A program made the translations under genes and the position numbers. Shown one piece after another: positions 2,380-45,835 of a DNA stretch of 64,000 bases. Source of the stretch: Lyngbya sp. HA4199-MV5 (GTDB lineage: Bacteria; Cyanobacteriota; Cyanobacteriia; Leptolyngbyales; Leptolyngbyaceae); assembly GCA_019359375.1 (NCBI GenBank), contig JAHHHL010000030.1, positions 14,341 to 78,340 of the forward strand, written 5' to 3'. Each line of letters starts with the position of its first letter. The stretch's first letter is position 1. The notes under the pieces were generated by a model. That model was given only the letters and a program-made list of their open reading frames with translations. It did no database searches and had not been told where the DNA came from.

Positions 2380-2445
2380 AAGATGGGTTGGAGGTACGTG
2401 AGCGTTGATCTTATATCCTACCGAATTGCAGGGACGGTGTGGTAG

Positions 2446-2600
2446 AGGGATGAAGGCAGAGGGCAGGAGGCAGAAGGCAGGAGGCAGAGGGAGTTTTTAG
2501 TTTTTGGTTGTTGGTTGTTAGAAGGAGTGAGGCAAGGCTCATGCACTAACAACTAACAACTAACAACCAACAACTCTTAAGCTGACCGCTGACCGCTTCT
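2446..2600 (+). repeat. Composite STRR element copy A: (GAAGGCA/GAGGGCA)n-(GTTTTTA/GTTGTTG)n-26 bp core-(TAACAAC)n
   Basis: Core GAAGGAGTGAGGCAAGGCTCATGCAC at 2521-2546 between complementary heptamer arms. Confidence 0.85.
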
Positions 2601-3858: not shown

Positions 3859-5334
3859 TTAACGCTTCTTTAAGCGCGCCATGAAAAACCCATCCATCTT
3901 GTGCTGATGTGACCACACCTTGACCCAGCCCTCAGTTGTAACGAAAGCAGCGGGAGGGGAAGTGGCTTCTGGCGGGTCGATCGCCCATTCAGAATGGCAT
4001 TCAAGAAATCTTTGCACGATCGCCTCATTTTCTTGTGGATGTAACGTGCAGGTCGCGTAAACCAGCATGCCAGAAGGTTTCACCCAGGAGGCGGCTTGCT
4101 CCAATAATTCGGCTTGCAGTTGAGTCAATTGCTGTACCGTTTCGGGCGTTTGTCGCCAACGAGCGTCGGCATGACGATGCAAGGTGCCTAACCCAGAGCA
4201 TGGCGCATCTACCAGTACCCGATCGCATTGCCCTATAAATTGCGGCAGATTGCGACTATCACCTTCACAAAGCTGAAGCGATCGCACCCCTAGGCGATCA
4301 GCATTTTGCTTGAGCTTGCGGAGACGAGAAGCCGCGCGATCGCACGCCCAGATCACACCCTGATCCTGCATCAACTCCGCCAGATGCATCGTTTTGCCAC
4401 CCGGTGCAGCGCAGGCATCCACTACGATGTCTCCCGGTTTGGGATCGACCAGATAGCCCACCAGTTGCGCGCTACTGTCTTGCACCAGCCACCATCCTTC
4501 GGCGAACCCTGGTAACTGCTGCATCGCTCCAGACGCATTAGGAAGTCTCAATGCCTGCGGCAAATGAGGCACCCGACTCACCGCAATCCCTGCACTGTGC
4601 ATGGCGGCTTCAACGGTTTCAATGGCTGCTCGTAGCGTATTCACCCGTAGATCAATGTGCGGCGGCTGGTTCATCCACTGACACAACTGCTCCGTTGCCT
4701 CAATTCCCAATTGCTCCAGCCATACATCCACAATCCAATTGGGGTAGCTGTGCAAAACACCCAGGCGATCGATCGAAGGATAAAGGCTTAAGGATAAAGG
4801 ATCAACAAAACGGTCAGAATCTTCTCGATTGTTCTCTGCTTCCTGCCTTCTGCCTTCTGCCTCCTGCCCCCTGCCCTCTGCCTTCTGCCCCCTGTCCCCT
4901 GCCCCCTGCCCCCTACCGCCACTCCCCACTCCCCTATCTTCCTCCCTCAACCGCACATACTGTCGCAACACCCCATTCACAAACCCCGTTAGCCCCGCAA
5001 ACCCATTTTGTTTCGCCAGATCAACCGTTGTATTCACAGCAGCAGAGGCAGGCACCTGATTCAAGTAGCGCAGTTGATATAACCCCAAATGCAGAATGGT
5101 ACGCAGATCAGCAGGCTGTTGCTGGGCAGGCTTCTTGGCGAGTTGGTCAATGAGGGCATCCAGGGTGCGCTGACGACGAATGCTGCCGTACACCAACTCA
5201 GTCAACAAGCGACGATCGGGCAGGCTACTCAGCTTTGCCTGATGCAGAATTTGATCCAGAGCAACATCGGCGAAGGCTCCTCGCTGTACCGATCGCAGCG
5301 CTAAAAAAGCCAACTGACGAGGATTTTGAGTCAC
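3859..5334 (-). CDS. rsmB: 16S rRNA m5C967 methyltransferase RsmB with in-frame repeat insertion
   Basis: NusB-like N-terminus, DACAAPGGKT, VLVDAPCSGLG, YATCTL motifs; ~50-aa G/E/R/Q insert at ~4780-4945. Confidence 0.95.
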   Translation of the reverse strand: MTQNPRQLAFLALRSVQRGAFADVALDQILHQAKLSSLPDRRLLTELVYGSIRRQRTLDALIDQLAKKPAQQQPADLRTILHLGLYQLRYLNQVPASAAVNTTVDLAKQNGFAGLTGFVNGVLRQYVRLREEDRGVGSGGRGQGAGDRGQKAEGRGQEAEGRRQEAENNREDSDRFVDPLSLSLYPSIDRLGVLHSYPNWIVDVWLEQLGIEATEQLCQWMNQPPHIDLRVNTLRAAIETVEAAMHSAGIAVSRVPHLPQALRLPNASGAMQQLPGFAEGWWLVQDSSAQLVGYLVDPKPGDIVVDACAAPGGKTMHLAELMQDQGVIWACDRAASRLRKLKQNADRLGVRSLQLCEGDSRNLPQFIGQCDRVLVDAPCSGLGTLHRHADARWRQTPETVQQLTQLQAELLEQAASWVKPSGMLVYATCTLHPQENEAIVQRFLECHSEWAIDPPEATSPPAAFVTTEGWVKVWSHQHKMDGFFMARLKKR

Positions 5335-5944: not shown

Positions 5945-5959
5945 TTGAGACGGCATTGC

Positions 5960-7171
5960 ATGGATGAGCCAAAACAAGACCTCTTGCTAACCGTTCACGC
6001 GATCGGTGAACAAGGCTTGCTAAAAATTGTGCAGTCGTTTTGTCCAACGGACGTGATCGGCGATGATGCGGCAGTGCTGACACCTCAGCCAGGGCGATCG
6101 CTCATCGTCACAACCGATATTTTGGTGGATGGCGTACATTTCAGCGACCAAACAACCTCGGCAGAAGATGCAGGTTGGCGAGCCGCCGCCGCAAATCTCT
6201 CTGATCTAGCAGCAATGGGTGCAACGCCTTTAGGCATCACGATCGGCTTGGGGTTACCCGGAGATGTACCAGTAGCGTGGGTTGAAGGACTCTATCGGGG
6301 CGTGTCTGCATGTTTAAGACAGTACAGGAGCACGATCGTGGGCGGTGATCTGTGTCGATCGCCCGTCATCACGATCGCCATTACAGCGTTTGGAGAAGCT
6401 GAGCCAAACCAAATTATCCGTCGTTCCGCCGCCCAACCAGGTGATGCGATCGTCGTTACAGGCTATCACGGTGCCTCTAAAGCTGGATTAGAACTGTTAC
6501 TGCATGCTGAAAACGGTCGATCGCTCAGTGAGGGCGATCGTATTCATCTGATCCAAGCGCACCAGCGTCCCAAGCCTCGACTGGATGTGGTGGCATGGCT
6601 TTGGGGGGAAGGCAGAGGGCAGAAGGCAGAGGGCAGAAGGCAGAAGGCAGGAGGGGAGGCAGAGGGGGCAAGGGAGGCTGGGGAAGCAGAGGCAGTAATG
6701 GGAGAGAGACAGCCTTGGGGCGATGAGGGACAGAATTTAACTCACCCCTTTCCCCTTCCCCCTTCCCCCTTCCCCCTCCCTGCACCCCACACCCTACGCT
6801 CTACACCCCACACCCGCATTGCTGGTATGGACAGCAGCGATGGCTTAGCCGATGCAATCATCCAAATTTGTCGTGCCAGCCATGTAGGAGCTAGCATTGA
6901 GCGCAGTCAGATTCCCATCCCTCCAGCTTTAGCGCAATGGGTCGGTGCAGAGCAAGCGTTGGCATGGGCGTTGTATGGCGGCGAGGATTTTGAGCTAGTA
7001 CTGTGTCTGCCGTTGGAGTGGGCGCAGACGTTGGTACAGAAGGTGGGTGGTAGCGCGGCGATCGTCGGCTCCATTACAGCGACTCCAGACGTTCGGCTTG
7101 TAGATACAATTGGCAACGCACCTGAGCAGCCGTTAACGCTGGAGCGGGGCTTTCAGCACTTTACCGATTAG
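5960..7171 (+). CDS. thiL: Thiamine-monophosphate kinase with in-frame repeat insertion
   Basis: IGDDAAVL, LVDGVHFS, ANLSDLAAMGA, GGDL, GMDSSDGLA, GGEDFELV motifs; ~70-aa insert at ~6603-6815. Confidence 0.95.
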   Translation: MDEPKQDLLLTVHAIGEQGLLKIVQSFCPTDVIGDDAAVLTPQPGRSLIVTTDILVDGVHFSDQTTSAEDAGWRAAAANLSDLAAMGATPLGITIGLGLPGDVPVAWVEGLYRGVSACLRQYRSTIVGGDLCRSPVITIAITAFGEAEPNQIIRRSAAQPGDAIVVTGYHGASKAGLELLLHAENGRSLSEGDRIHLIQAHQRPKPRLDVVAWLWGEGRGQKAEGRRQKAGGEAEGAREAGEAEAVMGERQPWGDEGQNLTHPFPLPPSPFPLPAPHTLRSTPHTRIAGMDSSDGLADAIIQICRASHVGASIERSQIPIPPALAQWVGAEQALAWALYGGEDFELVLCLPLEWAQTLVQKVGGSAAIVGSITATPDVRLVDTIGNAPEQPLTLERGFQHFTD

Positions 7172-7187: not shown

Positions 7188-9920
7188 TCATCGCAGGTAG
7201 GCGATCGTCACACCCGCCCCACCATCCGCACGACCTGCTAGTTCGTATCTTTCTACTTGAGGATGGTGCTGCAAAAAGTCGTGGACTCCCTGCCGCAGCT
7301 TGCCTGTGCCATGCCCGTGAATGATCCACAGAACACCACTGTCATACGCCTTTGCGATCGCCTGTTCCATCAACGGTTCAGCATCGGCAACGCGACTACC
7401 GCGAATGTCGATCGTATTGCGATCGGTGCGAATAATCGGGGTGCCGGGTTCTGGGGATAGGGTGTCGGGCAAGTCAGTTTGAGTGCCTCCTGCCTCCTGC
7501 CTCCTGCCTTCTGCCCCTTGCGCTCTGCCTTCTGCTTTCTGCCTCTTCACCGCCTTTTCTCCATCTAACGACTCCACATCGTCGATCGGCACGGTCATCT
7601 TCATCAGCCCAAAGCGGACGGTGATTTCTTCATCGTCATTCGGAGCCGTCAGCACTTCAGCGGTTTGACCCAGACGTGGAATGCGGACACGATCGCCCAC
7701 CTGCGGACGAAACCCTGGTTTGGGTGGTTTGCGTTGCCGTGAGGGTAGACGAGTTTCGGCAAGCTGATTGAGCGAGTCGGTTGCCTGTTGTGCCGCCTGA
7801 GCCGATACAGGACCTTGCTGAAGTTGGCGGATCACCTGAGCAATTTCACTCTTTGCCTCAGCGATCGCCGCTTGCACTGCCTGTTCTTGCGCTTGTTGTA
7901 AGGACTGTTCTCGCTCCTTTAAAGATGCGGCTTTGCGAGACAGTTCTCGATGAAGACGTTCGGCACTTTCTAGTAGTGTTGCCGCTTCTTGAGACTTCGT
8001 TTCCTGACGGCGACGCTGTGCTTCCAGTCCGGCTATCACCTGGTTCACATCGTCTGATGCACCACCGACATAGGTTTGTGCCTGCTCCACAACGCTGGCA
8101 TCTAGCCCCAGGCGACGGGCGATCGTCAGCGCATTCGATCGTCCGGGGATACCCCACAGCAGGCGATAGGTCGGCGATAGCGACACATCATCAAACTCAA
8201 CGGACGCATTTTCAAACCGATCGTCCTGATACTTCAACGCCTTCAGTTCGCCAAAGTGCGTCGTGGCAATTGTCAAACCCGCATGATCTGCCAGGTGCTT
8301 GAGCAACGCGATCGCCAGCGCACTACCTTCAGAGGGATCGGTGCCAGCACCCACTTCGTCGAGAAGGACGAGGGAGTATGGGGTGTGGGGTGTGGGGTGT
8401 GGGGTGTGGGGTGCAGGGTGTGGGAGGTCTAAGTTTTGAGTTGAAGAACTAGCTTCTCCCCCTGCTCCCTCTGCTCCTACTTCCCCTGCCCCTTCTGCTT
8501 CTCCTCCTGCCTTCTGCCCTCTGCCTCCTGCCTCCTGCCCTCTGCCTTCTGCCTCCTGCCCTCCTAATGCTTCCTCAGCCTCCCCTGCCTCTTCCCCTCT
8601 GCCTCCTGCCTCCTGCCCTCTGCCTTCTGCCTCCTGCCCTCCTAATGCTTCCAAAATCCGACTAATCCGCCGAATGTGCCCCGAAAAAGTCGAAAGGCTT
8701 TGTTCCAGAGATTGTTCGTCACCAATATCGGCTAGCACCTGATCAAACCATGGCAATTCCACAGGTTCGCGGGCGGGGACGAATAGCCCAACTTTTGCCA
8801 TGAGGACGGCTAACCCAAGAGTTTTGAGGGTGACGGTTTTGCCGCCTGTGTTGGGTCCCGTAATGGCGACGACGCGAATGTGGGGTTGAATGACGAGATC
8901 GATCGGCACCACGGCTCGTCCCTGTTCGTGTTGCTGTTGCCAGAGAAGTAGGGGGTGACGGAGATGGCGAAGGACGATCGAAGTGGGTGTGGGGTGTGGG
9001 GTGTGGGGTGTGGGGTCAGATGGGATTGCAGTGTCCCGTGTGATGAAACGAGGAGGATTGGCTTCTAACCACAGACTGTAGCGGGCGCGGGCAGTGGCGA
9101 GATCCAGGGTGATGGCGATCGCCAGTAGTCGTTCTAAGTCAGGCTTGACGGTGGCAACTTGATCAGTGAGTGCTTGCCGGACGGCTTCTTCCTCGCTTTG
9201 CTCCTGGCGCTGAAGCTGGCGCAGTTGATTGTTGAGACTAACGGTGGCTTGTGGCTCAACGTACAACGTGGCACCGCTCATAGACGTATCATGCACGATG
9301 CCGGGAATCGCGTCTTTTTGGGGTGCCTTGACGGGGATGACGAAGCGCCCTTCGCGCTGGGTGATCAGGCTTTCTTGCACGGCGTTTGCTTTGCGCTGCA
9401 AGAGGTTTTGTAAGGTGCTGTAGACTCGATCGCGCAGGTGTTTTTGCTGTTCTCGAATGCCAGCTAGCTTGGGCGTTGCACGATCGGCAACCTGACCACG
9501 ATCGTCGATGCACCGGTGGATTTCTTGCTCCAGTTCAGGATACGTTCGTAGCTCCTCGATCAGCGCATTCAGCACCGTTAGATCTGGTTGGCTATCAATG
9601 ACACGCCTGAGCTGACGCATTCCAGCCAGCGTGGTGGCGATCGCCAAAAGCTCTTCACCAGACAGCAGCCCGCGCCGTTCTGCCCGCTCCAGCGATTCAC
9701 CAATATCGGTAATGCCGTCAAACTTTAGCCCCGTGCTGAGACGGCTTTCGAGCGCATAGACTTCCTGCGTTTGTGCTAGCAGGGTCAACGTTTCGGCTTG
9801 CGTGTTGGGGATGCGGAGACGACGAGCGGCAATTGCCCCTAGCTTAGTTGCCGCAAAGGTGGAGAGGTGCTGGCAAAGCCGCGACCATTCTAAAAGTTCA
9901 AGGGTTTCAGCTTGGATCAA
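7188..9920 (-). CDS. mutS2: Endonuclease MutS2 with three in-frame repeat insertions
   Basis: ITGPNTGGKT Walker A, LVLLDEVGAGTDP Walker B, C-terminal Smr domain (IIHGHGTGKLR). Confidence 0.95.
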   Translation of the reverse strand: MIQAETLELLEWSRLCQHLSTFAATKLGAIAARRLRIPNTQAETLTLLAQTQEVYALESRLSTGLKFDGITDIGESLERAERRGLLSGEELLAIATTLAGMRQLRRVIDSQPDLTVLNALIEELRTYPELEQEIHRCIDDRGQVADRATPKLAGIREQQKHLRDRVYSTLQNLLQRKANAVQESLITQREGRFVIPVKAPQKDAIPGIVHDTSMSGATLYVEPQATVSLNNQLRQLQRQEQSEEEAVRQALTDQVATVKPDLERLLAIAITLDLATARARYSLWLEANPPRFITRDTAIPSDPTPHTPHPTPTSIVLRHLRHPLLLWQQQHEQGRAVVPIDLVIQPHIRVVAITGPNTGGKTVTLKTLGLAVLMAKVGLFVPAREPVELPWFDQVLADIGDEQSLEQSLSTFSGHIRRISRILEALGGQEAEGRGQEAGGRGEEAGEAEEALGGQEAEGRGQEAGGRGQKAGGEAEGAGEVGAEGAGGEASSSTQNLDLPHPAPHTPHPTPHTPYSLVLLDEVGAGTDPSEGSALAIALLKHLADHAGLTIATTHFGELKALKYQDDRFENASVEFDDVSLSPTYRLLWGIPGRSNALTIARRLGLDASVVEQAQTYVGGASDDVNQVIAGLEAQRRRQETKSQEAATLLESAERLHRELSRKAASLKEREQSLQQAQEQAVQAAIAEAKSEIAQVIRQLQQGPVSAQAAQQATDSLNQLAETRLPSRQRKPPKPGFRPQVGDRVRIPRLGQTAEVLTAPNDDEEITVRFGLMKMTVPIDDVESLDGEKAVKRQKAEGRAQGAEGRRQEAGGTQTDLPDTLSPEPGTPIIRTDRNTIDIRGSRVADAEPLMEQAIAKAYDSGVLWIIHGHGTGKLRQGVHDFLQHHPQVERYELAGRADGGAGVTIAYLR

Positions 9921-10193
9921 GTTGTATCAACAGGTTACGCTTTCTCTATTTTAAGGAGTTCTCCGACCCAGCGACGTGCCATCCGTAAAAGAGTCGGCAG
10001 ACGATCGCGGGCTGTGCGTGAGTTGCATCACCAAGCATTTGTTGCTGTATCACTCAGCGATCGCTACAGCATCACCTGCGAGAATCCAGCGCATCACACG
10101 GCATTTACCTAAATGTCACACTACTCATGCTGTCTGAACTTCATACTAGATTCATAAAACTTAGATTCGTAAGCTTGAGAAAAGGGGTGTACG

Positions 10194-11234: not shown

Positions 11235-11500
11235 AAACTGGGGGATGAGGGATGAGGGATGAGGGATGAAAGAGTTTTGAGTTGAACCAGTTGTTGGTTG
11301 TTGGTTGTTAGTTGTTGGTTGTTGGTTGTTAGAAAGAGGGGAATAGGGAGCAGGGAGTAGGGTTAAAGGATGGCGCTTGGAGTGCTCGCTGTCCGCTCAC
11401 TCCTGACTTCTGACTCCTTCTAATGACTCCTTCTAAAAACTAAAAACTAAAAACCTTTCTGGTATGCCCATAGGGCTTTACAACTCACCTGCCTTCTGCC
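11235..11500 (-). repeat. Composite STRR element copy E (core interrupted)
   Basis: On minus: (GTTTTTA)3-GAAGGAGTCA...-(TAACAAC/CAACAAC)n-TGGTTCAACTCAAAACTCT, the last motif identical to copy B flank. Confidence 0.75.
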
Positions 11501-11636
11501 TTCTCTCAAGCTTTACCAATTCTTCATCCATTTTGCCCCTATCGTTGCACAGTCGTTATGCAGCCCTTGCTAGAAGGTGAGGAGTGAGGGGAACAATCAA
11601 TTATCAGGTATTAAATTATGCAAGCAGGTGGGCATC

Positions 11637-12534: not shown

Positions 12535-12887
12535 TCTGAAAGTGAGGGGTGAGGGGTGAGGAGGCAGAGGGCATAAGGGATGGGGGATAAGGGATGAAGG
12601 CTTGGAAAAGGCAGAAGGCAGAGGGCAGGAGGCAGAAGGCGAGAGAAGTTGTTGGTTTTTGGTTTTTAGTTGTTAGAAGAAGGCAGGTGGCAGAAGGATA
12701 AGGGGTAAAAAGCTGGCTCCTGGCTCCTGACTGTTGAAGACTCGTAGAAGGCAAAGGGAGCTTTTAGTTTTTAGAAGGAGCCAGGAAAGGCTCAAGCAGT
12801 AATAACCAACAACTAACAACCAACAACTAACAACTGGTTCAACTCAAAACTCTTGCCCCTCGCTCCTCACTCCTTACCCCTCACTCC
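12535..12887 (+). repeat. Composite STRR element copy B with extended heptamer arrays
   Basis: Core GAAGGAGCCAGGAAAGGCTCAAGCAG at 12774-12799 between (GTTTTTA)n and (TAACAAC)n arms. Confidence 0.85.
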
Positions 12888-23135: not shown

Positions 23136-25130
23136 ATGCCAATGGGGATAAACTTCGGACGTGAAGTCTGCGGTGATTTTGACCAGGCACAAGCACGGGA
23201 ATGGCTGGTCACGAATGGCATCGGTGGCTATGCATCAGGCACGATCGCGGGACTACTCACCCGACGCTATCACGGGCTATTGGTGGCAGCCTTGCAGCCC
23301 CCGTTAGGGCGCACGCTCATGCTGGCAAAGCTGGACGATACGGCATTGTACGGCGATCGCTTCTATCCCCTCCATGCCAATCGGTGGTCTGACGGTACGG
23401 TTGGTCCCCACGGCTACCGTCATTTGGAACGCTTTGTTTTAGAGGGCACGATTCCCACCTGGCACTATGCCTGCGCCGATGCGTTGCTGGAAAAGCGCGT
23501 GTGGATGCAGCCCGGTGCCAATACGACCTATGTGTATTACCAACTGGTACGCGGCACCCAACCGTTAACGCTGACCATGAAAGCGATGGTGAACTACCGG
23601 GATTACCACAGCAACACGGTGGGCAATGGCTGGCGGATGACCATCGTACCTGCCGAACATGGGGTTTACATCTCTGCTTACCCGGAAGCGGCACAGCTTT
23701 ATCTCGCCAGCGATCGCGCCGATGTCACCACTGCCCACGACTGGTACTACGGATTTGAACTCACGGCTGAGCGCGATCGGGGGCTGAACGACCACGACGA
23801 TCATCTCCATGCGGCGACCTTTCAAGCCACACTACAACCAGGAGAAACACTCACATTGGTTGCCAGTACCGAGCGAAAGCCAGAACGCGATGGCGAAGCC
23901 GCGCTTAAAATCCGTCGTGCGTATGAATACAAGCTGTTAGGACTCTGGCACAGCAACCGTCCTGTAGACACCAAAGATATTCCCGCCTTTGCCGATCAAC
24001 TGGTGCTGGCAGCCGATCAATTTGTTGTGCAGCGATCGACCCCCGAAGAACCCCACGGCAAAACCATCATTGCGGGCTACCACTGGTTTAGCGATTGGGG
24101 ACGCGACACGATGGTTAGCCTGCCTGGTTTGACGCTAGCAACAGGTCGTCCCGAAATTGCGCGATCGATCCTGCGTACCTTTGCCCGTCACGTCAATCAG
24201 GGGATGCTGCCAAACCGCTTTCCCGACGCGGGCGAACTGCCCGAATACAATACAGTAGACGCGACGTTGTGGTTCTTTGAAGCTGTCCGCGCCTACTACG
24301 GCGTGACCGAAGATGATGATTTAGTGCAAGACCTCTTTCCGGTGCTGGCAGACGTTGTGGATTGGCACTGCCGGGGCACCCGCTACAACATTCACCTCGA
24401 TCCGGCTGATGGGTTGCTGTATGCAGGCGAAACGGGCGTGCAGTTGACCTGGATGGATGCCAAAGTGGGCGATTGGGTCGTCACACCGCGCATTGGCAAA
24501 CCCATTGAGGTCAATGCCCTGTGGTACAACGCGCTACGAACGATCGCCAAACTTGCCCGCACGATCGGCAAGCCCCATCAAGAATACGAAGCGATGGCCG
24601 ATCGTACCCTGGCACGCTTCTCGCGCTTCTGGCATCCCGAACTGGGCTATTGCTACGATGTGCTGGATGGCACGGATGGCGATGACGCATCCTTGCGCCC
24701 CAACCAGATCTTTGCCGTCTCGCTGCCTGAAAGTCCTCTATCAGCCGCTCAACAGAAAGGCGTAGTGGATGTTTGCGGGCGAGCGTTGTTGACCTCCCAC
24801 GGGCTGCGATCGCTCGACCCTAACCATCCCAAGTATCAGGGCACCTACGGCGGCGACCAACGTCAGCGCGACGGAGTTTACCATCAGGGCACTGTGTGGG
24901 GGTGGCTCCTTGGTCCCTTTGTATTGGCACACCTGCGCGTCTATGGCGATCCGATCAAAGCTCGTGCCTTTCTCGAACCGATGGCAAATCATTTCTACGC
25001 CCACGGAGTCGGCAGTCTCAGCGAAATTTTTGATGGTGATGCACCGATGAAACCCCAAGGCTGCATTGCTCAAGCGTGGACGGTCGCAGAGGTACTACGG
25101 GCGTGGCTGGCGACGGAGACAGAGCGATAA
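23136..25130 (+). CDS. Amylo-alpha-1,6-glucosidase (glycogen debranching enzyme family)
   Basis: EWLVTNGIGGYASGT, IIAGYHWFSDWGRDTM, YNTVDATLWF, LTWMDAK, QAWTVAE. Confidence 0.93.
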   Translation: MPMGINFGREVCGDFDQAQAREWLVTNGIGGYASGTIAGLLTRRYHGLLVAALQPPLGRTLMLAKLDDTALYGDRFYPLHANRWSDGTVGPHGYRHLERFVLEGTIPTWHYACADALLEKRVWMQPGANTTYVYYQLVRGTQPLTLTMKAMVNYRDYHSNTVGNGWRMTIVPAEHGVYISAYPEAAQLYLASDRADVTTAHDWYYGFELTAERDRGLNDHDDHLHAATFQATLQPGETLTLVASTERKPERDGEAALKIRRAYEYKLLGLWHSNRPVDTKDIPAFADQLVLAADQFVVQRSTPEEPHGKTIIAGYHWFSDWGRDTMVSLPGLTLATGRPEIARSILRTFARHVNQGMLPNRFPDAGELPEYNTVDATLWFFEAVRAYYGVTEDDDLVQDLFPVLADVVDWHCRGTRYNIHLDPADGLLYAGETGVQLTWMDAKVGDWVVTPRIGKPIEVNALWYNALRTIAKLARTIGKPHQEYEAMADRTLARFSRFWHPELGYCYDVLDGTDGDDASLRPNQIFAVSLPESPLSAAQQKGVVDVCGRALLTSHGLRSLDPNHPKYQGTYGGDQRQRDGVYHQGTVWGWLLGPFVLAHLRVYGDPIKARAFLEPMANHFYAHGVGSLSEIFDGDAPMKPQGCIAQAWTVAEVLRAWLATETER

Positions 25131-25254
25131 AATATGGTTAACGGAGGAGGAGTGCAAGCCATCGCAGCCATGGTCAAGCTTGGCTGGCACGCTCACTACC
25201 GCATCTTCGCTCCTTTTTTCCCAACTAGCTTTCGTGTCTGCTCGGTGTAGCGTT

Positions 25255-25719
25255 CTAATCAATGTAGTCTCGCAGCATATCCGGTTTTTCTTGGTTATGC
25301 GCCGTAATCGGGCGATCGCCATCGACGGGAAGCGTTTTGCGAATTTGAAGTTTACTCGTTTCAATCGGTCGTTTGCCATCTTCGTAGACAACTTCTTTCA
25401 CATCTAAATGGCTCGCCGTAATCGGGCGATCGCCATCAATGCCCAAAGTTTTGTCACTATCGATCGCACGGGCACCAATGGGGCGAGTACCATCCATCTC
25501 AAATGTGTCGCTCACATGAACGTCACTGGCAACAACTGGGCGCTTGCCATCAATGGGTAAAACATACTGGATTTGAAGCTCACTATCATCAATGGGGCGA
25601 TTGCCATCGACCTCAAGCATCCTGGTCTCTTGCCGCTCTTCGCCTGAAGGCATGATAGCGCCGTCATCCGGATGTTCCTGCTGTGTACTCACAGTGCAAA
25701 CTCCTGTTCTTGCTAGCAA
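25255..25719 (-). CDS. Hypothetical protein with six 19-aa DG.RP(I/V) repeats
   Basis: Exact 19-residue periodicity; start may be ATG 25653. Confidence 0.75.
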   Translation of the reverse strand: MLARTGVCTVSTQQEHPDDGAIMPSGEERQETRMLEVDGNRPIDDSELQIQYVLPIDGKRPVVASDVHVSDTFEMDGTRPIGARAIDSDKTLGIDGDRPITASHLDVKEVVYEDGKRPIETSKLQIRKTLPVDGDRPITAHNQEKPDMLRDYID

Positions 25720-25937
25720 CTCTCTACTTTTAACAGCTTGATGGTTGACCGATAACTGTCTAACGGTTGGTTTTGGGTGTTGAGTCGTTAAGGAATGAAA
25801 ATTAAATCACTTCGATCACCTCAGCCGTTTGATTGGACGGGCGCGACATGCGGCAGCTAACTCTGGGCGAAAGCAAAGATTTTTTACCGCATACCACGCC
25901 CCTACGCACAGAATGACACCTGATTTAATCCACGATC

Positions 25938-26645
25938 CTAAGCGATCGCCCGATCGCCCATCGCTGCCAAAATGCCTTCAAACAATGGCATCCCGTCTGT
26001 TCCACCCAACAGTGAATCAGAAGCTCGTTCTGGGTGGGGCATCATGCCGAGCACATTGCCGTTGCGGTTGCAGATGCCTGCGATGTTGTTGAGTGAACCA
26101 TTGGGATTGCTGACATCATCCACATCTCCTGCATCGGTGACGTAGCGGAAGACAATTTGACCATTCGCTTCCAGATCTGCCACCGTAGCGGCATCGGCAT
26201 AGTAGTTGCCTTCACCATGCGCGATCGGTAGCGTAATCACGGCTCCTTTCTGATAATTCTGCGTCCAGGGTAAATCGGTGCATTCGACACGGAGGGGCAC
26301 GCGATCGCAAATGAAGTGCAAATCTCGATTGCGGACTAAGGCTCCTGGCAGCAACCCCGCTTCCGTTAGCACCTGAAACCCGTTGCAGATGCCCAGGACG
26401 AGCTTTCCCTGTTTGGCATGGTTGATGGTTGCCTGCATGGCGGGAGAGAACCGCGCGATCGCCCCGCAGCGCAGGTAATCGCCATAGCTAAAGCCTCCCG
26501 GCACGACAATCACATCCAGGTCAGTCAGATCGCTTTCTTCATGCCAGACCATACGGGTGGATTGCTGCAACAGCGATTGCGTGACATACGCCACGTCGCG
26601 ATCGCAATTGGAACCTGGAAAGACAATGACACCAAATTTAACCAT
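25938..26645 (-). CDS. purQ: Phosphoribosylformylglycinamidine synthase subunit PurQ
   Basis: [36 protein letters not shown]. Confidence 0.97.
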
Positions 26646-26657
26646 GACGCTCTGTTA

Positions 26658-27230
26658 CTAACCTAACGGGATGCCTGCTTGCTGAAACACTTGCTCTGCG
26701 GTGAATGCTAACCCCTCAAAGAGCGGATCTGTCAGCAGTGTATCGCCTCTATAGGTTTGAGGTGGCGCATCAGGGTAGAAAACAGTAACGCTTCTGGCTT
26801 TACTATCAACAACCCAAACTCGCAGCACGTTGGCATTCAGATACGCCCTCGCTTTTGCCGCCAGTTCGCCAAACGTCTGCCCTGGTGAGATGATTTCGAT
26901 CGCCAGATCTGGAGGCACAGAACACGCCCCGTCCTCATCCCAATCAGCAGGCAGTCGTTCGTTGGTTATGTACAGCAGATCAGGCGTAGGCACCCAGCTT
27001 TTGCCATCACGAGTTAACGTAATCGCCAGTTCAGGACACACTTCACCGCGTCCATTGCTCCATCCGTCAATCAGGTAAAGCAACGTGCGGGTTAACTTCG
27101 AGTGATTTTTCTTAGGAGACATTTTGGGAATCGCTTGCCCATCCACTAATTCATAAGTCAAATCACCCTCACCTGGCGGGAGAGCTAAAAATTCCTCAAG
27201 CGACAGTAACCCCTTGGCTTGAACAACCAT
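26658..27230 (-). CDS. Uma2-family endonuclease
   Basis: YELVDG, PDLLY, PPDLAIEIISP, Y...VLRVWVVD. Confidence 0.9.
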   Translation of the reverse strand: MVVQAKGLLSLEEFLALPPGEGDLTYELVDGQAIPKMSPKKNHSKLTRTLLYLIDGWSNGRGEVCPELAITLTRDGKSWVPTPDLLYITNERLPADWDEDGACSVPPDLAIEIISPGQTFGELAAKARAYLNANVLRVWVVDSKARSVTVFYPDAPPQTYRGDTLLTDPLFEGLAFTAEQVFQQAGIPLG

Positions 27231-27260
27231 AGTGCGTGAACCATTACGTTAGTTCTCATT

Positions 27261-27641
27261 CTAAAGGGATTCGGCTTGATGCAAGATCAGCCAATTGCCA
27301 TCGGGATCGTAGGCATAGATTTCTCTGCCGTGAGAGGCGGTGATGATGTCGCCGGGTGGTGGATAGCCGAGTTGGGTAAGGTGGGCGATCGCACTGTCTA
27401 AATTCTCGACCTCTAGACACAGACTCATGCCTGTGGAGGAGTGGGGAGTGGGGAGTGGGGAGTGGGGAGTGGGTGTGGGGTGAAAGATGCCGAGTTTTAA
27501 TCCTGGGAGATGAAATTCGGCGTAGATGTTGGGACGCAGAACGACGGGTTGCAGGTTGAAAAGCTGGCTGTAGAACTGAGTGAGGGCAGAAAAGCGAGTC
27601 GTTGAGAGGGTGAGTAGAGCGGCGGTACAGCGAAATGACAT
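27261..27641 (-). CDS. VOC/glyoxalase-family protein with in-frame STRR insert
   Basis: FYSQLF, LCLEVENLDSAIAHL, HGREIYAYDPDGN; (CTCCCCA)n-derived TPTPHSPLPTPHS. Confidence 0.85.
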   Translation of the reverse strand: MSFRCTAALLTLSTTRFSALTQFYSQLFNLQPVVLRPNIYAEFHLPGLKLGIFHPTPTPHSPLPTPHSSTGMSLCLEVENLDSAIAHLTQLGYPPPGDIITASHGREIYAYDPDGNWLILHQAESL

Positions 27642-28375
27642 TATTTCACCAAACGATAGATCGTACTCGTCCCACCATACGAGCCATCAAAATCGGTATC
27701 AGACTCCCACCCAAACAGTGCTCTAGACGAAGAGTTAGACAGTACACGGCTGCAACCATCGTCTAACCCAATGCCAATATGTGCTTCGCCAAAGGCAACG
27801 ACGAGATCCCCAGCCTTCGCGTCTGCGGGTGAGACTTCTTTACCGCGATCGTGTTGCAGCGCTTCGTACAATGAAGGGACGTAGTTAGGATTGTCACCCA
27901 ACGGCGTAATGCCCGCTTTGCTGAGAACCCGGTTCAATGACCACGCACAGGCGTTGTTGCCACCATCGGGACCATCGGCGGTACACATGCCGCGCAAATT
28001 TTCGGCAGCCGCCAGAATCGCCGCATTCAAGTCTGCTGGTGTGGCAGTAGCGTGATTGGTGACAATTTCCTGAAAGTAAACCCCTGCTGTTTGAGCACCG
28101 ATCGCACCTTGATTTGTCCCTGTATTATTCAGGCGATGGGTTTCTTTGAATGCGCCGACTCCGGCTGTAGAAAGGTCAAAGCCCTGCTGTTGGCATAACT
28201 GAATAAAGGCTGTTAAGGTGCCGGGACCGATCGCACCCGGTTTACCCAACTTCATCAACTGCTTGAGCTGATTGAGTTGCTCGACGGGTAGATGTTTGAG
28301 AATAGCAAAGGCGTAGCTTTCCTCGATCGAAAGCTTCGTCGGATCAATATTTTCGATCGCAATAGCAGAAACCAT
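27641..28375 (-). CDS. Putative cell-wall hydrolase (N-terminal PG-binding-like, C-terminal NlpC/P60-like Cys-His domain)
   Basis: NNACAW...AGDLVV....HIGI pattern; twin G.IG..T motifs in N-terminal half. Confidence 0.55.
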   Translation of the reverse strand: MVSAIAIENIDPTKLSIEESYAFAILKHLPVEQLNQLKQLMKLGKPGAIGPGTLTAFIQLCQQQGFDLSTAGVGAFKETHRLNNTGTNQGAIGAQTAGVYFQEIVTNHATATPADLNAAILAAAENLRGMCTADGPDGGNNACAWSLNRVLSKAGITPLGDNPNYVPSLYEALQHDRGKEVSPADAKAGDLVVAFGEAHIGIGLDDGCSRVLSNSSSRALFGWESDTDFDGSYGGTSTIYRLVK

Positions 28376-28550
28376 AACGTCACCTGTAAGCTGGAACAGA
28401 GGCAATACACCCAAACCAATAATGGCTGATGTGTTACGACCATACCGCCACACCTGGATCGAGATGGATTACGTTATAGAAAAATTAATGTCTATCTTCA
28501 ACCTGCTGGATCAATGAGTCATTCTATTGATGTCACTGTGACGATCGCTC

Positions 28551-29372
28551 ATGCCTGAAGGTCCCGAAATTAAACAAGCAGCCGATGCGATTGGACGGGC
28601 GATCGTTCAGAAGCCGCTGCTCCACGTTGCGTTTGCCTTTGAACGCTTGCAGCCCTACGAAGACATGCTTGTGAAGGAACAGATCTGGGCAGTGCAGGCT
28701 AAAGGCAAAGCGCTGCTGATTCGGTTTCAAGATCAGCTCAATATCTACAGTCACAACCAGCTTTATGGCAAGTGGTACATCCAGAAAGCAAATGTTCATC
28801 CTGTCACGAACCGTCAACTGCGGTTAGCAATCCACACGCAAACGCAGGCAGCGCTCCTGTACAGTGCGTCGGAGATTGATGTCATCACAAATGAGCAGCT
28901 ATTGACCCATCCCTTTCTCAGTCGGTTGGGTCCTGATGTGTTGGATGACACGACCACGGTAGAGCAGGTGCAAGCACGCTTTTTAGACAAGCGCTTTTAT
29001 CGTCGTGGATTGATTAGTCTGCTGCTGGATCAAGGGTTTTTGTGTGGCTTGGGCAACTATCTTCGCAGTGAAGTGCTGTTTGTCGCCGGGGTGAACCCAG
29101 CGTTGCGTCCGATCGATTGCACCGCTGGACAGATTCTCAAACTGGCAGAAGGCGCGATCGCGGTGAGCCGTCAATCCTACATCACCAAAGGCATCACGAA
29201 TGATCTGGAGATTGTTGCGCAGCTCAAACAACAGGGCTATACACGCCAGCAGTACCGTCTCTACGTCTTCAACCGCGATGGCAAGCCCTGCTACATCTGC
29301 GGCACCGTTATTCTGAAAGAGATTGCGGGGGGTCGCCGTCTCTACTACTGTCCCCATTGCCAAGCGCGTTAA
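28551..29372 (+). CDS. nei: Endonuclease VIII (Fpg/Nei family)
   Basis: MPEGPE N-terminus, SHNQLYGKW, GLGNYLRSE, C-terminal CxxC...CPHCQ zinc finger. Confidence 0.92.
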   Translation: MPEGPEIKQAADAIGRAIVQKPLLHVAFAFERLQPYEDMLVKEQIWAVQAKGKALLIRFQDQLNIYSHNQLYGKWYIQKANVHPVTNRQLRLAIHTQTQAALLYSASEIDVITNEQLLTHPFLSRLGPDVLDDTTTVEQVQARFLDKRFYRRGLISLLLDQGFLCGLGNYLRSEVLFVAGVNPALRPIDCTAGQILKLAEGAIAVSRQSYITKGITNDLEIVAQLKQQGYTRQQYRLYVFNRDGKPCYICGTVILKEIAGGRRLYYCPHCQAR

Positions 29373-29377
29373 AGAGC

Positions 29378-30043
29378 ATGAATGCCTCCCCCAGTCCTCT
29401 GTGTAACGCAACCCGCTTTCAAACAGTGTGGCAACGCCTTGGTAGTAACGTTGATGGTGTGGAGTTGTTCACCCACCTGCTGGAGGCGTATCGCCAGCCC
29501 CATCGCGCTTATCACACAGTGGCTCACATTGAAGCGTGCTTATACCAGCTTGATGGATATCAGCTTGATGTCGCTCAAACCCAGGCAGAGCGACCCGCTG
29601 AGGTAGAAATGGCGCTGTGGTTTCATGATGCGGTGTATGGTCTCAAAGCAGCCGATAACGAGGCGCAAAGTGCGCTGTGGGCAGCTCAAGCACTGCATCA
29701 GAGTGGGGTGAGTGCGGTGGTGAGCGATCGCATCACGACGATGATTCTGGCAACGACGCACGATCGCCCACCGGAAACGCACGATTGCGCGTTGCTGCTC
29801 GATATCGACCTATCCATTCTGGGACAATCCCCCGAAGCGTTTGCCGTTTACGAACAACACATTCGCACTGAGTACCATTGGGTGACAGAGAAGCAATATC
29901 GCGCTGGACGGGCGGCAATTTTAGAGCAGTTTCTGGCGCGATCGACCATTTACTACACTCCATTTTTTCAAGCACGGTTGGAAGCACAGGCACGGTGGAA
30001 CCTGGAGCGGTCGATCGCCACACTGTGTGGGCAACGTTTTTAA
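29378..30043 (+). CDS. HD-superfamily predicted metal-dependent phosphohydrolase
   Basis: Y.QPHRAYHT..HI, ALWFHDAVY, LLDIDLSILG, IRTEY. Confidence 0.8.
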   Translation: MNASPSPLCNATRFQTVWQRLGSNVDGVELFTHLLEAYRQPHRAYHTVAHIEACLYQLDGYQLDVAQTQAERPAEVEMALWFHDAVYGLKAADNEAQSALWAAQALHQSGVSAVVSDRITTMILATTHDRPPETHDCALLLDIDLSILGQSPEAFAVYEQHIRTEYHWVTEKQYRAGRAAILEQFLARSTIYYTPFFQARLEAQARWNLERSIATLCGQRF

Positions 30044-30117
30044 GGCAAGAGACGGAACACCACTCTTCAGAAAAGCCTTTTTCGGTGGGCTTGATGCTAG
30101 TCGCTCACATTGAAGGA

Positions 30118-30162
30118 GCCATTATGTTTTCAGCCGTTATGTTTTTAGCCGTTATGTTTTTA
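30118..30162. repeat. Three tandem 15-bp units spanning the kinase stop codon
   Basis: GCCATTATGTTTTCA GCCGTTATGTTTTTA GCCGTTATGTTTTTA. Confidence 0.8.
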
Positions 30163-32941: not shown

Positions 32942-33312
32942 CTAACCTCAACATCCCTTTAACAGCGGTTGAGCAGTCCTTCTCAGGCTCTAAAAAATGA
33001 TTTTGACCCTATAAAGACAAGGCAGTAACTTGAGACCAACCGACCTGGATTACGTCTAAAAAACAGGTTATCCACCATTCAAGCAGATTCTCGTACAGGT
33101 CGCTTTGGCTGACTGCACCTACAGTATTCCCACGCAAAACGGTAGATTCTCACAAGTTTCGGCAAGGTCAGGGGCGCACAGCGCGATCGCTCTGCACAGA
33201 TATTTATGATGGGTGGCTGGCGCGATCGCATGAGGAAGAACCGCGAGAATTGCTGGAAGAGGTCAAGCAGCAGTTAATTTTATTTAACTCTCATTTCTCA
33301 GCGAAATAAAGG

Positions 33313-35623: not shown

Positions 35624-35646
35624 GTCTGTGATAGTGAACGAAGGGC

Positions 35647-35717
35647 GCGATCGCCACCAAACCGCCTCACTGCTTGGGTTTCTTGCCGATAACCAACTGA
35701 TGGGGAAGGGCGATCGC
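35647..35717. repeat. HIP1-bounded ~70-bp direct repeat, copy 1
   Basis: GCGATCGCCACCAAACCGCCTCACTGCTTGGGTTTCTTGCCGATAACCAACTGATGG...GGCGATCGC; second copy 36730-36799. Confidence 0.9.
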
Positions 35718-44929: not shown

Positions 44930-45125
44930 CAGTCTAGGAGTTTTGAGTAGCGCTTTGCGCCGACAAGCTAGAGAGTTTTGAGTCGTTGGCTATTAGTGCA
45001 TGAGCCGTTCCTGCCTCCTTCTTAAAAACTAACAACCCCCTTGACTCCTGACTCCTGACTCCTCTCTAGTGGTTAGCAGTCAACTTTTTATCCTTTATCC
45101 TTCATCCTTTCCCCCTCCTTTTCCA
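44930..45125 (-). repeat. Composite STRR element copy C (inverted)
   Basis: Core on minus GAAGGAGGCAGGAACGGCTCATGCAC at 44996-45021; short arms and TCAAAACTC flank. Confidence 0.8.
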
Positions 45126-45685: not shown

Positions 45686-45835
45686 TAGAAGGCAGAGGGC
45701 AAGGGAGGTTTTTAGTTGTTAGTTTTTAGTTGTTAGAGGAAGTCAGGAACGGCTCAGGCACTAACAACGAACAACCAACAACCAACAACTGTCAAAACTC
45801 ACAGGCTGACCGCTGACTGCCAAACCTTCCTGGAC
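45686..45835 (+). repeat. Composite STRR element copy D
   Basis: Core GAGGAAGTCAGGAACGGCTCAGGCAC at 45736-45761 between (GTTGTTA/GTTTTTA)n and (TAACAAC/CAACAAC)n. Confidence 0.85.

Follow-up and report, generated by a model that had tools for sequence, protein, structure and literature searches.

The heptamer repeats of filamentous cyanobacteria known as STRRs are described as simple arrays, built of units (CCCCAGT, TTGGTCA and CAACAGT) other than those found here. Heptamer arrays are reportedly also the setting of the small dispersed repeats SDR1–8, which are said to be 21–27 nt long and to occur in Nostoc punctiforme and its relatives. The Nostocaceae SDR work of Elhai et al. 2008 is cited in PMC5861425 and PMC3116915, and no SDR-like repeat was found outside the Nostocaceae (PMC5861425).

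Here, we analyse a stretch of 64,000 nucleotides (the window) from a Stenomitos-like cyanobacterium of the Leptolyngbyaceae that carries composite elements in which a centre of ~26 nt (the core) lies between two inverted heptamer arrays (the arms). These elements form a real dispersed family and are not a local oddity, and they are best read as a new family or variant of an already known repeat type, lineage-restricted and non-coding. The original prediction of an 'undescribed system' was overstated, since small dispersed repeats of 21–27 nt in heptamer arrays have already been described in the Nostocaceae.

SDR1–8 are reportedly likewise non-coding conserved units of ~21–27 nt, said to be present in tens of copies within heptamer arrays, to show predicted hairpins and nested insertions, and to be restricted to one cyanobacterial lineage. 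With its 26 nt, the centre described here is a dispersed unit of SDR size in heptamer repeats. It is not, as an SDR would be, a small unit itself inserted so as to interrupt a continuous array, whereas a second family of ~30 nt ('element 2') is. The lineage here is the Leptolyngbyaceae, that of the SDRs the Nostocaceae; the arrays here are mutually inverted, element-specific and form a stem; and it is the arms plus the centre that are gained or lost here and not the centre alone. The composites resemble REP/REPIN sequences in that they are intergenic, form a long imperfect hairpin of two inverted arms and a short spacer, reach tens to hundreds of copies (~45–77 here), lack a target-site duplication and differ sharply in number between related genomes. 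They differ in that their arms are variable-number tandem heptamers, where a REP is a fixed palindrome of 20–40 nt, and in that they have no GTAG or CGTC tag and no RAYT in the window. With bacterial MITEs (Nezha in cyanobacteria, IS630-derived) they share non-coding character, a size of ~70–300 bp, inverted repeats, intergenic position and presence or absence between relatives, but they do not clearly have fixed terminal inverted repeats, show no target-site duplication and have no parent IS with matching ends among the ORFs scanned; the inverted arms do bound the unit of insertion or deletion, and nested copies carry extra purine-block sequence outside the arms. Finally, the composite is built from arrays of STRR type, that is, intergenic tandem 7-nt units of variable copy number, with the difference that the two specific unit types seen here always face each other in inverted orientation on either side of a conserved centre.

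Layout of the composite elements

A degenerate core pattern (GARGRAGNNAGGNANGGCTCANGCAS, up to three mismatches) matched the window four times against 0.03 expected, and 0/100 shuffles gave four matches. The hits are exactly the cores of copies A–D (Table 1), so that the four dispersed cores were recovered with the coordinates and strands originally predicted. Because the search patterns fixed many positions, the conservation of the core is overstated, and joints read in the source run show further variants. Every copy is intergenic, as had been claimed. The predicted order of purine-rich array, (GTTKTTR)n, core and (YAACAAC)n was found in A, B and D, and the tail TCAAAACTC follows the right arm in B, C and D; the array upstream of copy C is (GGAGTCA)n and not of the GAAGGCA type. 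A further composite combines these arms and the TGGTTCAACTCAAAACTC tail with a different centre of 102 nt, which has only its first 10 nt (GAAGGAGTCA) in common with the core and is present in ~1.5–6 copies in the source genome. This fifth, minus-strand composite had been overlooked by the original prediction, as had the nesting of copy B within an outer left arm. Copies A and C contain a two-codon ORF, ATG-CAC-TAA, which we dismissed since it is missing from B and D.

Table 1 Positions of the composite elements and their parts in the window.
Feature	Position	Strand	Remark
Copy A, purine-rich heptamer block (TAGAGGGATGAAGGCAGAGGGCAGG...GAGGGAG)	2443..2492	+	
Copy A, left arm, GTTKTTR x4	2493..2520	+	
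Copy A, core, 26 nt, GAAGGAGTGAGGCAAGGCTCATGCAC	2521..2546	+	
Copy A, right arm, YAACAAC x4	2547..2574	+	
Copy A, tail TCTTAA, then outer array (GCTGACC)n	2575..2597	+	
Fifth composite, whole	11240..11505	-	begins with (GAAGGCA)2 on minus strand
Fifth composite, 'element 2', after (GAAGGCA)2	11455-11484	-	
Fifth composite, left arm (GTTTTTA)3	11434-11454	-	
Fifth composite, 102-nt centre, start GAAGGAGTCA	11332-11433	-	
Fifth composite, right arm (YAACAAC)6	11290-11331	-	
Fifth composite, tail TGGTTCAACTCAAAACTC, then (TCATCCC)n	11272-11289	-	
Copy B, (GAAGGCA)n block, end GAGAGAAG	12608..12647	+	
Copy B, outer left arm, GTTGTTG GTTTTTG GTTTTTA GTTGTTA	12648..12675	+	
Copy B, interior segment, 86 nt, core-like start GAAGAAGGCAGG, end TAGAAGGCAAAGGGAGC	12676..12761	+	
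Copy B, inner left arm TTTTAGTTTTTA	12762..12773	+	
Copy B, core GAAGGAGCCAGGAAAGGCTCAAGCAG	12774..12799	+	
Copy B, right arm, 5 units	12800..12834	+	
Copy B, tail TGGTTCAACTCAAAACTC	12835..12852	+	~58 copies in source genome
Copy C, tail containing 'module T', TCAAAACTC-TCTAGCTTGTCGGCGCAAAGCGCTAC-TCAAAACTC	44937..44981	-	
Copy C, right arm, degenerate, TAATAGCCAACGAC	44982..44995	-	
Copy C, core GAAGGAGGCAGGAACGGCTCATGCAC	44996..45021	-	identical to core of L023, HA4199-MV5
Copy C, left arm (GGTTGTTAGTTTTTAA), (GGAGTCA)3 before it	45022..45063	-	
Copy D, TAGAAGGCAGAGGGCAAGGGAG block	45686..45707	+	begins directly 3' of stop codon of conserved 43-aa ORF
Copy D, left arm, 4 units	45708..45735	+	
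Copy D, core GAGGAAGTCAGGAACGGCTCAGGCAC	45736..45761	+	
Copy D, right arm, 4 units	45762..45789	+	
Copy D, tail TGTCAAAACTCACAG, then GCTGACCGCTGACTGCC array	45790..45821	+	array abuts conserved pdhB -10 box

Heptamer arrays occupy most spacers and some lie in frame within genes; a tandem-repeat scan of the window gave period 7 in ~60 of 90 rows, overlapping rows representing the same arrays, and a stricter count of our own gave 38 arrays. Within the window, GTTKTTR and YAACAAC arrays lie inside composites without exception, and the arm heptamers are wholly missing from 143.7 kb of relatives, which do carry other heptamer arrays. The arms therefore belong to the element, as had been proposed against their being background STRR arrays, and the core does not by itself make up the unit. 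By contrast, the proposal of the core as the real mobile or functional unit is contradicted, since no fully read copy has a core without arms; all 17 full copies have heptamer arrays on both sides of a centre of 26 nt (19 nt in one variant), and only ~2 of 31 contigs from the source run end straight past the core with the right arm missing. The loci read include no array pair that lacks a centre, and arms and tail surround other centres in the fifth composite and in the outer element of B.

The composites are modular in make-up. Between the inverted arms of a copy, units match at only ~6 of 7 bases, and the core opens, over its left half, a heptamer run of GGAGTCA/GAAGTCA type, which continues into (GAAGTCA)n in three contigs of the source genome; the 19-nt variant is the 26-nt core minus exactly one heptamer. 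Tails vary likewise, some copies having TGGTTCAAC-TCAAAACTC and others (GCTGACC)n, and nested and tandem forms occur, the nested copies bringing with them a fragment of the purine block (TAGAAGGCAAAGGGAG in B, CAAGGGGG in L020, a contig locus of HA4199-MV5). Mosaics of ~320 bp have been copied as blocks. The 86-nt interior segment of B is single-copy in the source genome and has a non-orthologous counterpart of 97% identity in HA4199-MV5; a unique stretch of 97 nt in B is 97% identical to a copy that lies at a different locus in HA4199-MV5 than in the window, as against 79–89% for orthologous genes among these relatives. 'Element 2' is inserted within arms, where it interrupts YAACAAC arrays and restores their ACAAC end.

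Occurrence in related genomes

The number of core copies per source genome was estimated at ~45–77 from summed contig depth in the only public run (summed core depth 25,000–43,000 versus a single-copy depth of ~555–575); two reference copies gave agreeing figures, summed unitig depths being approximate. Across public sequencing runs, the locus was found in one DNA run and in no RNA run. The same ordered architecture is present in Leptolyngbya sp. BL-A-14 (L003, L009), in Stenomitos rutilans (L008) and on eight contigs of 'Lyngbya' sp. HA4199-MV5, in all cases next to housekeeping genes unrelated to those flanking the window copies. Searching the genome and its relatives with the core, as the original prediction had suggested, thus revealed a dispersed family with associated arms and copies beyond the window, and the core is not confined to the few loci first seen. 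One specific 26-nt centre has been kept nearly identical in at least four genomes, and core differences are about equal within and between genomes (mean 2.8 and 3.4, respectively).

Among 185,579 genomes searched, the core pattern had no match in any Nostocaceae species representative. Six matches in non-cyanobacterial genomes, seven in metagenomes and four in viral contigs lacked arms and were set aside as chance. The interior segment of B had no match in viral contigs, and a plasmid database search returned low-complexity noise only.

Filled and empty orthologous sites

None of the orthologous spacers compared, those of the four window sites and of three HA4199-MV5 sites, contains the core or the arms, so that the empty sites that had been looked for were found at seven spacers. 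With synteny kept, copy D is absent from five related genomes at seven loci (L026/L027, L028, L029, L033, L034/L035), copy C from the four genomes inspected (L026, L029, L033, L034) and copy A from two relatives. Copy B, which lies between the CBS and HEAT genes, is absent from three relatives, in which the spacer measures 97, 94 and 207 nt versus 359 nt in the window. The three HA4199-MV5 copies are absent from S. frigidus ULC029, where the corresponding spacers measure 109, 129 and 66 nt, and the orthologous HEAT–HAGH spacer of the same genome lacks the fifth composite.

In two of the empty spacers the outer modules are joined directly, GGCAGAAG to GCTGACCGCTGACTGC in L033 and GGCGAGGGAAG to TAATTCAAAACTCAAAACTC in ULC029, which identifies the arms-plus-core hairpin as the differing unit. 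This presence and absence of the whole hairpin fits the MITE-like reading in the original prediction. The spacer between the ABC and MlaD genes has no arrays at all in ULC029 and a full composite in HA4199-MV5; a receiving site therefore needs no pre-existing array. 'Module T' of copy C also occurs in the D-orthologous spacer of BL-A-14. Target-site duplications, which had likewise been proposed as a check, did not exceed 1–2 nt in two filled/empty comparisons (window D versus L033; L020a versus ULC029), both between species and not fully clean. Orthologous spacers are otherwise unalignable, so that neither a sharp outer end nor a target-site duplication is definable, and since the relatives all have ~88–89% pdhB identity, parsimony at single sites does not separate gain in the window lineage from loss elsewhere.

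Folding, transcription signals and mobility genes

The idea that the arms can pair and present the core as a loop holds in silico for copies A, C and D, which together with copies from other genomes gave RNA fold z-scores of -2.4 to -5.6; it hardly holds for B (z -1.4), in which the left arm directly beside the core is only 12 nt long. A structured RNA, as originally suggested, was not borne out, given the lack of covariation and the systematic U.C mismatch built into the commonest pair of arm units (GTTTTTA/TAACAAC): 80.6% of cells were paired versus 79.1% in shuffles, 33 of 500 shuffles reached as high a value, and two columns were unpaired in 14 of 16 sequences. A mini-hairpin within the core (positions 5–9 with 16–20) was rejected because positions 8 and 9 vary freely, including G.G, and no pair of this mini-stem was altered on both sides by compensatory change. 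Rfam gave no match at the gathering score across the whole window; at E<1, the three element-bearing loci gave a single match, which is noise, as it scored 15 bits where the gathering score is 72. Copies A, C and D contain no terminator-like site, their stems being A/U-rich and without a T run, and the promoter scan gave no match inside the elements. Reading TTGTTA as a -35 and TAACAA as a -10 box fails on the spacing of 26 nt.

No transposase, HUH/RAYT or reverse transcriptase was linked to any copy examined, and Y1_Tnp had no match among the ORFs of the window or of L020; the expectation of a transposase or HUH/RAYT gene flanked by the core was thus disappointed in both sets. The only IS in the window, and the only one among the 53 ORFs scanned, is of the IS630 family (~50795–51757). 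It was rejected as a parent: its TIRs (TATAGCT...GTTAGGAC) bear no relation to the arms, and no inverted repeat connects the two. The inverted composite pair of L020 was rejected as a composite transposon because its members lie between housekeeping genes (TsaE, YvcK, Mla ABC, MlaD) whose order matches that in S. frigidus ULC029. The same genomes also contain a conventional MITE-like repeat with sharp TIRs (window ~25790–25936).

Origin and spread of the elements

On balance, we consider it somewhat probable that the composites are selfish or neutral, non-autonomous dispersed hairpin repeats of the REPIN/MITE/SDR kind that were copied to new intergenic sites. The variable unit would be an imperfect hairpin of (GTTKTTR)2-5, a centre of ~26 nt (consensus GAAGGAGTCAGGAACGGCTCATGCAC) and (YAACAAC)2-8, usually with a purine-rich (GAAGGCA)n-AGGGAG block on its left and a T(G)GTTCAAC-(TCAAAAC)n, (GCTGACC)n or (CTCACTC)n block on its right. 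It may be copied by a trans-acting enzyme encoded outside the window, probably through a single-stranded fold-back intermediate, and would insert without a visible target-site duplication. After insertion, the arms could gain and lose units independently by replication slippage, and recombination between heptamer arrays might then shuffle and nest whole composites; the purine-block fragments in nested copies fit such recombination between composites better than clean transposition of the hairpin. A bolder version, which we hold to be quite unlikely, is a hitherto unrecognised type of very small mobile element with expandable heptamer arrays as terminal inverted repeats. An HUH-type enzyme would move it in the form of single-stranded DNA, or a reverse transcriptase via an RNA intermediate, and the arrays would be synthesised in step with insertion. 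If this were true, the spacer and in-frame heptamer arrays of these Leptolyngbyaceae would be footprints of that machinery.

The heptamer arrays themselves might instead generate the mosaics with no dedicated mobility, an explanation that we regard as unlikely: slippage would make arrays, template switching or fold-back replication would set inverted arms around a junction sequence, and ectopic recombination or gene conversion between arrays would copy blocks among spacers. Much of the mosaic structure would follow, including the fuzzy outer limits and modular tails, the shared blocks of ~320 bp, the tandem and nested forms with purine-block fragments, the core half that begins a GGAGTCA/GAAGTCA array and runs into (GAAGTCA)n in three contigs, the variant one heptamer shorter, and the abundance of arrays in most spacers and even in frame inside genes. 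Arrays alone do not make arms, however, given the 143.7 kb of relatives with other heptamer arrays and without the arm types, and this account sits poorly with a specific 26-nt centre that is nearly identical in at least four genomes at ~45–77 copies, and with a full composite in HA4199-MV5 at the ABC–MlaD spacer that is array-free in ULC029. The strict SDR version of the original prediction, in which the 26-nt core alone is mobile and lands in pre-existing heptamer arrays, appears very improbable: the flanks are mutually inverted and are not one interrupted direct array, the arm heptamers are not independently present in relatives, no centre-less array pair occurs among the loci read, arms are found with other centres, and empty orthologous sites lack arms as well as core. 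These points stand against a core length within the 21–27 nt reported for Nostoc SDRs and the behaviour of the second ~30-nt family, which does interrupt YAACAAC arrays and restore the ACAAC end.

A host function, as an RNA hairpin that blocks exonucleases or terminates transcription in the manner of REP or BIME, or as a protein-bound double-stranded DNA site, is likewise quite improbable, since 0/7 orthologous spacers conserve the element across relatives. In 12 of 18 copies the ORF upstream is in the same orientation, which is not significant, and orientation is mixed, A and B pointing away from the neighbouring transcription units or opposing them. The purine block often starts right at the stop codon of the upstream ORF, most copies fold stably, and the core and the 97-nt stretch differ less between genomes than coding genes do, all of which would suit a function; heptamer repeats near Nostoc promoters and repeats of Beggiatoaceae have also been suggested to act in regulation (bioRxiv 10.1101/2022.06.06.494920; PMC4679880). 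Against this, B is nearly stemless, covariation is lacking, the commonest pair of arm units has its U.C mismatch, core positions 8 and 9 vary freely to the point of G.G, and the elements contain no U-tract, terminator-like or promoter-like match and belong to no Rfam family.

If the reading as a non-autonomous dispersed hairpin repeat holds, heptamer-linked small dispersed repeats are not confined to the Nostocaceae, contrary to PMC5861425. The elements would then also provide a tractable case for the origin and spread of cyanobacterial heptamer arrays, as they number ~45–77 copies, have a discrete hairpin as their unit and can be compared at orthologous sites, filled or empty, in sequenced relatives. 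The elements abut core promoters, the tail of copy D supplying the -35 region of pdhB, and fill 3' UTRs, so that they may make the expression of housekeeping genes differ from strain to strain. They also break short-read assemblies, and the Logan contig with pdhB ends inside copy C.

Architecture of the composite element

All four copies (A to D) of the 26-nt core described in the original prediction were recovered in the window, on the positions and strands given there (see table). A degenerate pattern derived from the four cores themselves, with up to three mismatches tolerated, matched A-D and nothing else in the 64 kb, and shuffled sequence gave a mean of 0.03 matches, with 0 of 100 shuffles yielding four. 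The predicted order of purine-rich heptamers, (GTTKTTR)n, core, (YAACAAC)n and short tail was likewise observed, with small departures in three copies: the upstream array of C is (GGAGTCA)n and not GAAGGCA; the place of TCAAAACTC is taken in A by TCTTAA and (GCTGACC)n; and B is nested, its complete left arm (12648-12675) being followed by an 86-nt insert before the core, with an arm of only 12 nt next to the core. Every copy is intergenic, as predicted, and its neighbours are ordinary housekeeping genes. In predicted folds, pairing of the arms leaves the core in the loop, as proposed, in A, C, D and the copies found in other genomes (RNA z -2.4 to -5.6), for which DNA folding was similar on both strands, but not in B, which hardly folds (z -1.4). 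A fifth composite has the same arms around a 102-nt centre, of which only the first 10 nt (GAAGGAGTCA) are in common with the core.

Coordinates of composites, other repeats and associated features (window positions unless a locus is named)
Feature	Position	Strand	Details
Core A	2521-2546	+	
Core B	12774-12799	+	
Core C	44996-45021	-	
Core D	45736-45761	+	
Fifth composite	about 11240-11505	-	(GAAGGCA)2, 3 GTTTTTA units, 6 YAACAAC units, then tail TGGTTCAACTCAAAACTC as in B
19-nt core	L012		exactly one heptamer shorter
Tandem or nested double	L020 8893-9023		
Core with different 3' half	L020 7495-7520		
Element 2	11455-11484; L003 4270-4320; L015; L022; L023		
Module T	44937-44981	-	
Module T	L029 about 9880-9925; L031		variant in L031
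GC-rich hairpin	L012 14760-14830		HA4199-MV5 copy
Sharp-ended repeat	about 25790-25936		about 150 nt
Sharp-ended repeat	L020 about 9505-9655		about 150 nt
Sharp-ended repeat	L030 about 7305-7425		about 120 nt
In-frame arrays, MutS2-like ORF (7188-9920)	7484-7545, 8379-8652, 8985-9016	-	
In-frame array, RsmB ORF (3859-5334)	4776-4934	-	
In-frame array, AIR-synthase-like ORF (5945-7171)	6607-6815		
IS630-family insertion sequence	about 50795-51757	-	TIRs TATAGCT...GTTAGGAC

The hairpin is present or absent at orthologous spacers

The window PdhB protein is 98-99% identical to those of Stenomitos frigidus, Leptolyngbya sp. BL-A-14, S. rutilans and Tildeniella nuda, HIP1 (GCGATCGC) sites occur in the window, and about 60 of 90 rows of a tandem-repeat scan had period 7; on these grounds the window belongs to a Stenomitos-like member of the Leptolyngbyaceae. 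Since synteny is kept in relatives around all four copies, presence and absence could be compared directly. Site D, which separates pdhB from a conserved 43-aa ORF, has neither arms nor core in all relatives examined (S. frigidus ULC18, a second S. frigidus assembly, S. frigidus ULC029, BL-A-14 and two further assemblies), and both are likewise missing from site C (upstream of a PhzF-like gene) in 4 of 4 genomes inspected (loci L026, L029, L033 and L034). At 359 nt, the CBS-HEAT spacer with B is longer in the window than in three relatives (97, 94 and 207 nt), all of which are without arms or core there, and at site A (upstream of an aminotransferase gene) ordinary sequence lies directly before the conserved promoter-proximal block in two relatives. 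Three copies in locus L020 of HA4199-MV5 occupy the YvcK-TsaE, ABC-MlaD and post-MlaD spacers; in ULC029, which has the same gene order, these spacers measure 109, 129 and 66 nt and hold neither arms nor core. The empty orthologous sites sought by the original prediction thus exist, with seven spacers differing in the presence or absence of the hairpin.

In the empty spacer of L033 (...GGCAGAGGGCAGAAG/GCTGACCGCTGACTGC...) the outer arrays of window D are in direct junction, and in the YvcK-TsaE spacer of ULC029 (...GGCAGAAGGCGAGGGAAG/TAATTCAAAACTCAAAACTC...) the purine block directly joins the tail. Because the outer blocks are joined in both, the differing part is the hairpin, that is, arms plus centre. 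All GTTKTTR and YAACAAC arrays of the window fall within the five composites and none occurs in 143.7 kb of relatives' DNA, where other heptamer arrays are common. The arms are thus an integral component of the composite, as originally proposed, and do not stem from background STRR.

Copy number and distribution

The window was found in one public run only, a DNA run labelled 'algae metagenome', whose contigs were aligned to D and B; a single copy has a depth of about 555-575. The summed core depth of 25,000-43,000 corresponds to roughly 45-77 genome equivalents, an approximate value because it sums unitig depths; by the same approximate measure, the arms and GAAGGCA block lie above the core, and the 86-nt B interior and 102-nt fifth-composite centre lie close to single copy. 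Contig joints in this run showed additional core variants, among them GGAAAAGCTCATGCAC, AGAACAGCGTATGCAC, GGAATGACTCATGCA and one of 19 nt, AGAATAGCTCATGC. The search patterns therefore capture only part of the family, and the seeming constancy of many positions in the core is partly an artefact of pattern-based copy finding.

In an exact scan of one genome from each of 185,579 species, only BL-A-14 and S. rutilans had arm-flanked matches to the core pattern, at two sites and one site respectively. The six remaining matches (Acidobacteria, Omnitrophota and others) were attributed to chance, being without arms and as numerous as expected. A metagenome scan matched eight contigs of JAESFW01, the MAG 'Lyngbya sp. 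HA4199-MV5', which is a close relative in spite of its name. The ordered architecture is identical in all BL-A-14, S. rutilans and HA4199-MV5 copies, and the core consensus is GAAGGAGTCAGGAACGGCTCATGCAC. No similarity was found between the genes flanking the foreign copies and the window flanks. The same core variant recurs in different genomes (C and L023; L008 and L017), and core differences are about equal within (mean 2.8) and between genomes (3.4).

The small dispersed repeats (SDRs) of Nostoc punctiforme (Elhai et al. 2008) are reportedly 21-27 nt long, often lie within heptamer arrays, form hairpins and nest. Compared by description, these are the closest published match to the present element, whose arrays differ in being inverted and element-specific. 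Since the core pattern was absent from Nostocaceae representatives in the species scan, the window family, which belongs to another lineage, is probably distinct from the Nostoc SDRs; according to PMC5861425, SDR-like repeats had not been seen beyond Nostocaceae. The element may work like a REPIN (PMC3116915), but it has no REP palindrome, and no RAYT gene was seen among the window or L020 ORFs. As to a MITE, the inverted arms bound the differing unit but are heptamer arrays of variable number, not repeats of fixed sequence; a target-site duplication was not seen at two filled-versus-empty junctions, nor a parent IS among the 53 ORFs scanned. Rather than the undescribed system originally envisaged, this is best read as an element of a known kind.

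The repeating unit and its structure

Five lines of evidence argue against the core alone as the unit. Every fully read core has arms (about 2 of 31 source-run contigs stop right after the core without a right arm); arms and tail also occur with other centres; the left half of the core is the start of a GGAGTCA/GAAGTCA-type heptamer run, and three source-genome contigs continue from it into (GAAGTCA)n; the arms, like the core, are missing from empty sites; and larger blocks move as one. Two neighbouring composites within L020 resemble the entire B composite: L020a shares 89% identity with it across about 320 bp, and L020b 87% across 221 bp. One unique stretch of B, 97 nt long and single copy in the source genome, matches L020a at 97% identity, above both the 92% between L020a and L020b and the 79-89% of orthologous genes among these relatives. 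That the core by itself is mobile is consequently very improbable.

No covariation appeared when 16 copies, each trimmed to the core with 14 nt of arm on either side, were aligned: arms-plus-mini-stem pairs formed in 80.6% of cells versus 79.1% with partners shuffled, and 33 of 500 shuffles scored as high. Two columns are unpaired in 14 of the 16 sequences: on the left, the innermost unit is usually GTTTTTA, and opposite TAACAAC it leaves a U.C mismatch (A.G on the other strand). Being of unequal length and not unit-by-unit mirror images, the arms each change independently. The elements matched no Rfam family and contained no promoter-like or terminator-like sites and no U tract. A same-orientation ORF lies upstream in 12 of 18 copies, which is suggestive, not significant; A and B are oppositely oriented. 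Nothing in these tests supports a selected RNA structure or host function, and we think it improbable that the element serves its host.

Mode of spread

The element is a conserved hairpin-shaped unit in tens of copies; its abundance is specific to the lineage, and at seven orthologous spacers it is present in one genome and absent from others. With modest confidence, we prefer to see it as non-autonomous and as copied in trans: the hairpin would first be copied, its two arms would then undergo slippage separately, and arrays would subsequently recombine with one another. Neither a target-site duplication (at two filled-versus-empty junctions) nor a transposase gene linked to the copies was seen, two checks that the original prediction suggested; the missing duplication, like the fold-back shape, is reminiscent of REPINs and of IS200/IS605-type single-strand transposition. 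The window's single IS (IS630 family) was rejected as parent, its ends being unrelated. Alternatively, array-driven template switching and ectopic conversion might make and spread mosaics with no dedicated enzyme, a reading favoured by the fuzzy outer limits of the composites and by nested copies that bring purine-block fragments along. This main rival appears unlikely, however, given that the arms are specific to the element and that HA4199-MV5 has a full composite at a spacer that is array-free in ULC029. Host function and a mobile core alone are less likely than either copying in trans or this rival.

Other repeats and genes

Another family of small dispersed repeats, termed 'element 2' (CTTTCTGGTATGCC..ATAGGGCTTTACAAC, about 30 nt, nested forms 52 nt), is inserted within YAACAAC arms in constant orientation relative to the array, with the ACAAC end restored; this is classical SDR-like behaviour inside arrays. 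'Module T', a 26-nt hairpin-containing insert (TCTAGCTTGTCGGCGCAAAGCGCTAC) flanked by two TCAAAACTC units, occupies different spacers in different genomes and also behaves like a classical SDR inside arrays. In L012, a GC-rich hairpin (GCCCCCGGCTTTGCCGGGGAGC) interrupts the tail between TGATTTAACT and CTCAAAAG and is a further small insert within the composite. A further repeat, about 120-165 nt long, has sharp inverted ends (GGATCGTGRATTAAAT...ATTTAATCCACGATCC) and the appearance of a conventional MITE; its window and HA4199-MV5 copies are about 80% identical at unrelated loci.

Three long ORFs contain in-frame heptamer arrays that translate into low-complexity linkers (e.g. GGQEAEGRGQEAGGRGEEAGEAEE); in the MutS2-like ORF a heptamer insert directly precedes the LLDEVG motif. 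The IS630 transposase is in two pieces (HTH ORF 51307-51693, DDE_3 ORF 50816-51277), and the element adjoins a MoCoBD_2 gene that is likewise split (51812-52342 and 52343-52834). ORFs at 35878-36342 and 26658-27230 encode a stand-alone HNH endonuclease and a Uma2-family putative restriction endonuclease. Between the PhzF-like gene and pdhB, two small ORFs at 45248-45406 (52 aa) and 45554-45685 (43 aa) are retained in several relatives within a spacer that is otherwise hypervariable. The pdhB -10 box (TAAAAT) and 5' leader (45817-45846) are conserved in all relatives, and the -35 position comes from the copy D tail in the window and from other arrays in relatives.
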